This document shows positions 1-360 of a stretch of 360 bases of DNA, one piece after another. Numbering within the stretch: the first letter of the stretch is position 1; the number at the start of each line of letters is the position of its first letter. This DNA is from Escherichia coli (GTDB lineage: Bacteria > Pseudomonadota > Gammaproteobacteria > Enterobacterales > Enterobacteriaceae): NCBI RefSeq assembly GCF_003334255.1, contig NZ_QOWU01000253.1; one strand, 5' to 3'. The translations under genes and the position numbers were made by a program. The notes beneath the pieces are model-generated. The model had not been told where the DNA came from, did no database searches, and worked only from the letters and a program-made list of their open reading frames with translations.

Positions 1-77
1 GGCTACGTAGCTCAGTTGGTTAGAGCACATCACTCATAATGATGGGGTCACAGGTTCGAATCCCGTCGTAGCCACCA
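1..77 (+). tRNA. metT: tRNA-Met, elongator type, anticodon CAU (CAT at 35-37); complete 77-nt gene with encoded CCA
   Basis: Acceptor stem 1-7 GGCTACG pairs perfectly with 67-73 CGTAGCC; discriminator A74; CCA at 75-77. Anticodon stem 28-32 CATCA pairs with 40-44 TGATG; 7-nt loop 33-39 CTCATAA has T two positions before CAT and A after. D-arm motif AGCTCAGTTGGTTAGAGC; T-loop TTCGAAT at 55-61. A fully paired G1-C72 end excludes initiator tRNA-fMet, which has an unpaired C1. Matches my recollection of E. coli elongator tRNA-Met; symbol assumes the first gene of the metT operon. Confidence 0.93.
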
Positions 78-87
78 TCTTTTTTTT
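78..87 (+). other. 10-nt inter-tRNA spacer, TCT followed by a T7 run; likely single-stranded precursor-processing region
   Basis: Sequence TCTTTTTTTT lies between the CCA of tRNA-Met and G1 of tRNA-Leu. It is too short for any promoter, so the genes must be co-transcribed. U-rich single-stranded spacers are typical endonuclease (RNase E) entry sites in polycistronic tRNA precursors; that role is inferred, not visible in sequence. Confidence 0.5.
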
Positions 88-172
88 GCGGGAGTGGCGA
101 AATTGGTAGACGCACCAGATTTAGGTTCTGGCGCCGCAAGGTGTGCGAGTTCAAGTCTCGCCTCCCGCACCA
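88..172 (+). tRNA. leuW: tRNA-Leu, anticodon UAG (TAG at 122-124), class II tRNA with long variable arm; 85 nt with encoded CCA
   Basis: Acceptor stem 88-94 GCGGGAG pairs perfectly with 162-168 CTCCCGC; discriminator A169; CCA at 170-172. Anticodon stem 115-119 CCAGA pairs with 127-131 TCTGG; loop 120-126 TTTAGGT gives anticodon TAG. The 85-nt length implies a long variable arm (around 132-149), as expected for Leu. T-loop TTCAAGT around 150-156. Consistent with E. coli leuW (tRNA-Leu reading CUA/CUG). Confidence 0.92.
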
Positions 173-195: not shown

Positions 196-270
196 TGGGG
201 TATCGCCAAGCGGTAAGGCACCGGTTTTTGATACCGGCATTCCCTGGTTCGAATCCAGGTACCCCAGCCA
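196..270 (+). tRNA. glnU: tRNA-Gln, anticodon UUG (TTG at 228-230); 75 nt with encoded CCA
   Basis: Acceptor stem 196-202 TGGGGTA pairs perfectly with 260-266 TACCCCA, giving the U1-A72 pair typical of bacterial tRNA-Gln; discriminator G267; CCA at 268-270. Anticodon stem 221-225 CCGGT pairs with 233-237 ACCGG; loop 226-232 TTTTGAT gives anticodon TTG. T-loop TTCGAAT at 248-254. Matches the tRNA-Gln1 (UUG) isoacceptor; I cannot tell glnU from glnW by sequence alone. Confidence 0.92.
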
Positions 271-285: not shown

Positions 286-360
286 GGCTACGTAGCTCAG
301 TTGGTTAGAGCACATCACTCATAATGATGGGGTCACAGGTTCGAATCCCGTCGTAGCCAC
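286..360 (+). tRNA. metU: tRNA-Met, elongator type, anticodon CAU (CAT at 320-322); partial, truncated by the window edge 2 nt before the end of the CCA
   Basis: Positions 286-360 are base-for-base identical to positions 1-75 of the first tRNA-Met. The window ends at the first C of the CCA, so the gene presumably continues 2 nt beyond 360. Symbol is tentative, assuming the second Met copy of the metT operon. Confidence 0.9.

Follow-up and report, generated by a model that had tools for sequence, protein, structure and literature searches.

The U-rich spacer between tRNA-Met and tRNA-Leu in the metT tRNA operon of Escherichia coli is excised mainly by RNase P, and before its removal it is probably base-paired with the A-rich end of the operon's own 5′ leader, as predicted by folding. 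The explanation towards which we lean, if only slightly, is that pairing with the leader sequence A8GAU precedes the removal of the spacer, hides the U-run and modulates RNase P. What was known before comprises the run, the operon and the nuclease pathway; this analysis adds the proposed leader:spacer helix, the rest of the finding being ordinary and largely known. Published work on the metT operon (Mohanty & Kushner) does not discuss secondary structure of leader or spacer, and a literature search, which covered papers other than those of 1981-82 on the supB-E operon, found no mention of the pairing.

The DNA analysed, called the window throughout, has a length of 360 nucleotides and represents the E. 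coli metT tRNA operon with the gene order Met, Leu-UAG, Gln-UUG, Met. Four tRNA genes were called on the plus strand by ARAGORN, and the Rfam tRNA model agrees on 4/4 of them. The asnB-ubiF interval holds the window sequence in 5,424 of 5,426 complete E. coli genomes (Megablast). The following features are referred to below:

1-77, plus strand: tRNA-Met (metT, elongator, anticodon CAU), by ARAGORN and Rfam tRNA (71.1 bits), matching the E. coli asnB-ubiF annotation
74-76, plus strand: A73-C74-C75 of tRNA-Met (discriminator and CC), a predicted bulge in MFE, centroid and constrained folds
75-77, plus strand: encoded CCA of tRNA-Met
77-87, plus strand: A-T-C-T8, 3′ strand of a predicted 11-bp helix with the metT 5′ leader, by exact reverse complementarity
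78-87, plus strand: metT-leuW spacer, serving pre-tRNA-Met as its 3′ trailer and pre-tRNA-Leu as its complete 5′ leader
80-87, plus strand: T8 homopolymer, length-polymorphic in E. coli (T6 to T10), by sequence and genome census
87-88, plus strand: RNase P cut U87|G88, from the RNase P-dependent separation described in PMC2241853
88-172, plus strand: tRNA-Leu (leuW, anticodon UAG, type II with long variable arm), by ARAGORN and Rfam (57.6 bits)
196-270, plus strand: tRNA-Gln (UUG), by ARAGORN and Rfam tRNA
286-360, plus strand: second tRNA-Met (CAU), by ARAGORN and Rfam tRNA

The limits of the spacer are based on the tRNA boundaries and the published processing pathway, and the bulge was predicted in folds of leader, tRNA-Met and spacer both with and without tRNA-Leu. 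A genome-encoded ...GCACCA ends tRNA-Leu at position 172. Because the window begins at G1 of metT, the metT 5′ leader is invisible from it.

Some features of the window concern the tRNA genes rather than the spacer. Between tRNA-Leu and the second tRNA-Met, at 173-285, there is a single tRNA-Gln(UUG) gene (compare L002 1385-1606), and two such genes (glnU, glnW) are present in K-12 and in the best-matching complete E. coli genomes listed; the segment 120-320 was split in two pieces in 8/8 matches listed, with a span of about 310 bp versus 201. Either a recombination deletion between identical Gln copies or the collapse of a tandem repeat in the source assembly accounts for the single gene. The T-stem of tRNA-Met shows an A.C mismatch at its third pair (positions 52 and 64, also 337 and 349; cmscan), which 80 of 81 aligned Enterobacterales sequences share, Serratia symbiotica (L104) alone having A:U. 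The sequence GCTACGTAGC, found at 2-11 and 287-296, is a perfect 10-nt palindrome that reaches across the larger part of the acceptor stem's 5′ strand into the D stem of tRNA-Met; judged by its sequence, it could be a source of alternative or intermolecular pairing of the precursor. Matches to the Plastid-ycf2 5′UTR RNA on the minus strand at 1-75 and 286-360 were rejected at 32.1 bits versus a gathering score of 65.7; they lie below threshold, fall on the two tRNA-Met copies in reverse complement, and are given no independent significance.

The spacer reads T78, C79 and T80 to T87, between the CCA at 75-77 and G88CGGGAG of tRNA-Leu. An earlier note on this DNA had described a run of seven T at 81-87 that lies immediately 3′ of the CCA and directly abuts G1 of tRNA-Leu. 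The run does abut G1, but it comprises eight T (80-87), and T78 and C79 lie between it and the CCA; T7 is found at this spacer in K-12 derivatives (L002). The T8 run exceeds chance: TTTTTTTT occurs once in the window at an expectation of 0.03, and any match was seen in only 3 of 200 dinucleotide-preserving shuffles. A T-rich tract is kept at the Met-Leu junction in most of the 123 Enterobacterales junctions listed. In its composition, the spacer has features of three kinds of sites. With UCUUUUUUUU following the CCA at 78-87, it presents an A/U-rich segment at least 1 nt beyond the CCA, as is characteristic of RNase E trailer sites, and T8 at 80-87 provides the U-tract of an intrinsic terminator (at least 5 U in 8). 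At T87|G88 the spacer abuts G+1 of an RCCA-encoding tRNA and places a U at N(-1), as in leaders cleaved by RNase P; N(-1) is T in 113 of the 123 Enterobacterales junctions listed, and this leader position contacts A248 of RNase P RNA (PMC10731613).

The suggestion that the homopolymer is a slippage hotspot is well supported by a comparison of run lengths across strains, a check that the note had proposed and that reveals differences from T6 to T10 within E. coli. Among 5,414 complete E. coli genomes, T6 was counted in 2,331, T7 in 1,716, T8 in 1,327 and T9 in 16, the 24 other junctions including one T10-length record (H52). The census used exact matches to queries of 85-88 nt, composed of a 14-nt Met anchor and 63 nt of unique leuW in addition to the spacer, so that a single indel is detectable, since it lowers the identity of such a query below 99%. 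Across at least 120 other Enterobacterales species the longest T-run of the spacer ranges from 1 to 9, mostly as TC followed by T3 to T9.

Met-Leu junctions were found at up to three places per E. coli genome, and the copy number of the Met-Leu-Gln-Gln unit consequently varies among strains. In ST95-32 (L001 897-1996) this unit is duplicated in tandem, giving 11 operon tRNA genes; the T8 spacer is present twice there, the second copy standing behind a metU-type leader to which it is weakly complementary (-3.0 kcal/mol). In Budvicia diplopodorum (L034) and Pragia fontium (L109), two Met-Leu junctions are separated by about 600 bp, each having its own promoter-like CATAATGCGC leader; the leaders differ and the spacers are identical, a pattern which at the sequence level suggests duplication of the whole operon head. 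A record titled Martelella alba BGMRC 2031 (L117), labelled as an alphaproteobacterium, carries a metT promoter, leader and junction of the Enterobacterales type, very similar to those of Acerihabitans (L010), and is probably misclassified or contaminated.

The partner proposed for the spacer is the last 11 nt of the metT 5′ leader, AAAAAAAAGAT (A8GAT), which lies outside the window and corresponds to positions 886-896 of the ST95-32 locus L001. The E. coli leader ends in ...GCG-AAAAAAAA-GAT, to which A77 together with the spacer (ATCTTTTTTTT) is exactly reverse-complementary, and the window allele combined with the L001 leader shows contiguous in-register Watson-Crick complementarity in 11 of 11 pairs. 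In both MFE and centroid folds the predicted 11-bp helix continues the acceptor stem of tRNA-Met, with A73-C74-C75 bulged out, and fold z-scores were -3.6 and -3.8 for leader, tRNA-Met and spacer with or without tRNA-Leu. In a constrained ensemble fold the helix pair probabilities are mostly at least 0.9. The U-run, which the earlier note had described as single-stranded, is thus predicted to be paired with the leader A8GAU instead. The tRNA-Met gene metU, which lacks such a complementarity between leader and trailer, gave only a broken duplex of -3.8 kcal/mol, and it is metU whose CCA is followed, at a distance of 2 nt, by a 'High' RNase E site (PMC2241853; Clarke 2014).

Folding from the transcription start, taken as the C of CGCAACG at the 5′ end of the template of Kime 2014, resulted in a 23-nt leader hairpin followed by the 11-bp leader:spacer helix. 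This hairpin (L001 863-885, CGC...GCC-GAUAA-GGU...GCG) comprises the first 23 nt of the metT transcript as predicted in E. coli, and it was also returned by RNAalifold over 93 Enterobacterales sequences, with a few one-sided changes and a single double change. The hairpin and the helix of the A-run combined would, according to these models, leave the whole 34-nt leader structured.

With both cloverleaves enforced, the helix energy was calculated as -4.6 kcal/mol for T5, -5.5 for T6, -6.4 for T7 and -7.4 for T8, a predicted shift of about 0.9 kcal/mol per U, and it reaches a plateau at T9 and above because the leader has eight A only. The A-run of the leader varies less than the T-run: A8 was found in 4,032 and A7 in 663 of 5,425 E. 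coli genomes. Since the leader usually has A8, U-runs of up to 8 would be fully paired and replication slippage would be free to move among T6, T7 and T8, which may be the reason why such slippage is tolerated while T9 and longer runs are rare. The T6, T7 and T8 variants are natural alleles, predicted to lie about 1 kcal/mol apart per step, that could be used for testing the helix.

The complementarity was compared over 123 promoter-proximal junctions listed, which belong to 54 genus-level groups. At least 6 consecutive in-register pairs are present in 96 of these 123 junctions. In several lineages the sequence has changed and the complementarity is kept, namely in Tatumella ptyseos (leader CAT, spacer side ATG), Edwardsiella hoshinae (ATAAAGTAT and ATACTTTAT) and Budvicia (AAATGTTAT and ATAATATTT, with one G.U). 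Extra G:C pairs occur in Dickeya (GGAAAAGAT and ATTTTTTCC, GG with CC) and in Yersinia (GAAAAAAGAT and ATCTTTTTTC, G at -10 with C at +9), and Hafnia keeps 8 in-register pairs despite a broken U-run. In an 81-sequence alignment restricted to the helix, and with shuffles that leave the relatedness of the sequences in, 78.9% of the cells are paired versus 73.6% after shuffling (0/500 as high), double changes affect 8 of 10 helix pairs (reached in 6/500 shuffles), and there are 26 further pair types versus 18.8 in the shuffles (0/500). All slid registers pair less well than the native one. The duplex energy, in a comparison not fully corrected for relatedness, is -3.95 kcal/mol for native combinations versus -2.60 ± 0.16 kcal/mol for permuted ones (0/5000), and for the 38 non-canonical haplotypes the corresponding values are -3.38 and -1.64 kcal/mol (0/5000). 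The lengths of A-run and T-run are correlated with rho values of 0.64 over all junctions listed and 0.72 over the 54 genus means, and their within-genus deviations are correlated as well (rho 0.36, p = 0.002).

These data have to be weighed against a rival view, in which the run is a neutral, unstable homopolymer in a short AT-rich spacer, its T-richness arises from the U(-1) preference of RNase P and the U-rich composition of trailers, and its fit to the leader A-run simply follows from base composition. Pairing between A-runs and T-runs is promiscuous, and the apparent conservation could therefore largely reflect independent preferences for A-rich leaders and U-rich trailers. Such a view would agree with the extreme length polymorphism within one species and with two null results: RNAalifold applied to the 93-sequence alignment returned the leader hairpin and the tRNA stems and did not call the leader:spacer helix, and a fixed-register 'double-mutant cycle' of native versus hybrid leader and spacer combinations gave no significant advantage of the native ones. 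In addition, some lineages have a weak helix or none, namely Klebsiella sp. BIGb0407-like loci, Arsenophonus, Pragia and Serratia microhaemolytica. On the other hand, neutrality does not sit well with non-homopolymer positions that are altered on both strands in several families, with native pairs of leader and spacer that are more complementary than any of the 5000 permutations, or with run lengths that are correlated even inside genera; moreover, alleles of T9 and longer, which exceed A8, are seldom seen in E. coli (16 with T9, 24 other junctions, among 5,414). We regard the purely compositional origin as unlikely. Support for the helix is nevertheless moderate, because RNAalifold did not recover it, and we rate its existence as somewhat more likely than not.

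The enzymes acting at metT|leuW are known from northern blots with nine oligonucleotides on wild type, rne-1, rnpA49, the double mutant and an rne deletion (Mohanty & Kushner 2008, PMC2241853). According to that study, RNase P is responsible for the junctions of the five upstream tRNAs, metT|leuW among them, and RNase E for removal of the terminator and for the separation of the last three tRNAs. Mature tRNA-Leu3 and tRNA-Met are only marginally reduced in rne-1; in rnpA49 they are strongly reduced and precursors retaining the 5′ leader build up, which comprise the first five, three, two or one tRNAs (PMC2241853). The RNase P dependence of the separation in vivo is also described in PMC7049720. 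RNase P removes the U-rich spacer in one cut at U87|G88, thereby freeing tRNA-Met from tRNA-Leu3, and the UCU(n) tail on tRNA-Met is afterwards trimmed by 3′ exonucleases (PMC2241853).

The earlier note had instead proposed that the U-run is of the single-stranded kind preferred by RNase E; read in this way, it would be an entry or cleavage site at which the separation of tRNA-Met and tRNA-Leu is initiated. The run is indeed A/U-rich and lies 2 nt past the CCA, and 'CCAUCUUUU' of metT appears on the list of Mohanty & Kushner as a site of 'Medium' efficiency, a rating inferred from species that appear with RNase P inactive only (PMC2241853). Intermediates VI (leader and metT) and VII (5′-extended leuW) are visible in rnpA49 and are weaker in rne-1 rnpA49 (PMC2241853). 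Most of the published data contradict a preferred site at this position, however, as RNase P is the primary enzyme: the effect of rne-1 is marginal and that of RNase P inactivation large, and the Met-Leu dicistron, expected by the note to accumulate when RNase E is inactivated, does not do so in rne-1 alone in the published northern blots (PMC2241853). The only RNase E sites detected in vivo lie downstream of metU, in agreement with in vitro analysis (Kime 2014, PMC3985628), and the in vitro cleavages lie 2 nt and 39 nt downstream of metU (Clarke 2014, PMC4191395). Pairing with the leader, as predicted by the folds, would speak against such an entry site as well. RNase E is a backup at most at metT|leuW; as the primary route it is largely refuted, and we give little credence to the run as its initiating site.

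Combining the pathway with the predicted structure, the sequence of events that we favour by a small degree starts from a precursor in which the U-run and A76 of the CCA would be paired with the A8GAU that closes the 34-nt metT leader, forming a putative 11-bp helix of almost only A:U pairs that would end exactly at G1 of tRNA-Leu. Such a helix would shield the U-run from RNase E and so account for the weak or missing cleavage of the spacer by this enzyme. More tentatively, and by analogy to other precursors, it may occlude the leaders of metT and leuW and thereby modulate or order RNase P. With the leaders of both tRNAs occupied, it should slow or order this enzyme, and any inhibition would have to be mild or transient, since wild-type cells process the junction efficiently (PMC2241853). 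The function of the helix is entirely inferred. If it forms, it would be one structural explanation for two observations that are at present without one: RNase E finds a poor substrate in the U-richest spacer of the metT precursor and an excellent one in the trailer of the identical copy metU, and the first junctions of the operon depend on RNase P.

Pausing or partial termination of RNA polymerase at the run, raised in the note as a cause of lowered downstream tRNA levels, is unsupported. A terminator consensus scan of the window returned 0 terminator-like sites and a promoter scan was likewise empty, and full-length transcripts of all seven tRNAs build up strongly in the nuclease double mutant (PMC2241853). 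No G+C-rich hairpin with a loop of 3-8 nt ends 0-2 nt before the U-tract; the nearest stable helix is the acceptor stem of tRNA-Met, which ends at position 73, 6 nt ahead of T80. The Term-seq tables of Adams 2021 contain for this operon only the 3′ ends 696,963 (leuW CCA end) and 696,428 (glnX), and they are blind for the spacer, where metT and metU are duplicates: reads ending there consist mostly of tRNA-Met sequence that is identical in both genes and will probably multi-map, so that the lack of spacer 3′ ends in these tables is uninformative. The TERMITe supplements hold no entry for this site.

A strong terminator 'downstream of leuW' (T3PE-211) is mentioned, with no coordinates in the text, by Choe 2022 (PMC9023263). 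Because the 'leuW' end of Adams 2021 is 696,963, T3PE-211 is probably the mature leuW end or the operon terminator and not the U-run, and it was not counted as termination in the run, the leuW 3′ end in Adams 2021 being the mature CCA end. T3PE-211, a Term-seq 3′ end assigned to leuW, reportedly stops a dual reporter as strongly as rrnB T1 with only 70 nt of upstream sequence (PMC9023263). If it corresponds to the mature 3′ end of leuW, this 'termination' may instead be a tRNA-like processing of the reporter mRNA.

Once the leader is counted, A-tract, stem and U8 tract do resemble the layout of a terminator, and the run might then be read as a pause site or weak intrinsic attenuator with the folded tRNA-Met as its hairpin. 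Its acceptor stem would be lengthened by leader GAU:AUC, A-tract and U-tract would pair as in bidirectional terminators, and the output of downstream tRNAs would be lowered, with the T6-T8 alleles tuning the read-through. We consider this distinctly improbable. The canonical hairpin 0-2 nt from the tract is missing, the acceptor stem ending 6 nt upstream of it, the extension by 3 bp (GAU/AUC) across a 3-nt bulge is approximately energy-neutral, and the 'loop' would be a 63-nt cloverleaf. In the 1996 measurements by Dong et al., tRNA-Leu3 is reportedly not under-represented relative to tRNA-Met-m, which also counts against attenuation. Full-length transcripts of the seven tRNAs are strong in double mutants (PMC2241853), and the Adams 2021 tables, which are uninformative at this duplicate, show no 3′ end within the spacer. 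Finally, Budvicia, Edwardsiella and Hafnia keep the complementarity though their U-run is broken up, and since the complementarity outlasts the run there, the pairing rather than the U-tract is argued to be what is conserved. A variant in which the A8...U8 helix turns the correctly folded tRNA-Met into the 'hairpin' of a folding-dependent attenuator or processing checkpoint, so that T6, T7 and T8 tune the supply of Leu3, Gln and Met tRNAs versus tRNA-Met, we rate as highly improbable; if it were true, read-through and/or access of RNase P to leuW would depend on the co-transcriptional closure of the tRNA-Met acceptor stem.

Compared with known systems, the run shares with intrinsic terminators a U-tract of 8 and a complementary A-tract upstream of a structured element, but differs from them in having no compact GC-rich hairpin adjoining the tract; the true operon terminator follows glnX, at about 1996-2035 of L001. 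Like the RNase E trailer sites of metU, glnV, hisR and lysY it is A/U-rich 1-3 nt past the CCA. Those sites, in contrast, are rated 'High' and are needed for maturation, whereas that of metT is 'Medium', is visible only without RNase P and is predicted to be double-stranded.

A terminal helix between a 5′ leader and a U-rich 3′ trailer, extending the precursor, is also a property of eukaryotic nuclear pre-tRNAs and of bacterial rRNA operons. In yeast pre-tRNA, Pol III terminates at the U-run, and the short helix carries a mismatch at -1; the corresponding helices of bacterial rRNA operons are long and serve as substrates of RNase III. The putative metT helix differs from both in consisting of 9-11 A:U-rich pairs within a transcript of the bacterial polymerase. 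Nothing points to RNase III at metT: a bulge breaks the run of 11 A:U-rich pairs, and the operon has no reported dependence on this enzyme.

The E. coli pre-tRNAs separated by RNase P (metT operon, secG-leuU, valV-valW and leuQPV; Mohanty & Kushner 2007/2008) include this very locus. They have in common a short spacer that doubles as 5′ leader for the tRNA behind it, so that the neighbours come apart through a single RNase P cut at G+1; RNase E, as published, is confined to the terminator and the distal part of the metT operon. With respect to the run itself there is no difference. In the valV-valW dicistron, flanking stem-loops inhibit RNase P and enforce a 3′-to-5′ order of processing, and pairing of the leader with RCCA is an RNase P anti-determinant in E. 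coli (Harris laboratory; PMC9433436, PMC10731613). The metT precursor resembles valV-valW in its promoter-proximal leader structure beside the cleavage site, which extends or abuts the acceptor stem and would be expected to slow RNase P. It differs in that the leader pairs with the trailer, that is the inter-tRNA spacer, and not in a local hairpin or with RCC; in the predicted structure ACC would be bulged and in principle free for the P15 loop, and the leader of the next tRNA would be occupied, too. The model substrate ptRNA-Met82, which is in wide use, carries the metT leader with the reference AAAAAG at -8 to -3 (PMC9433436) and is without the partner strand, because it ends at the CCA. For users of ptRNA-Met82 it is therefore relevant that the natural substrate has a partner strand which the model does not.
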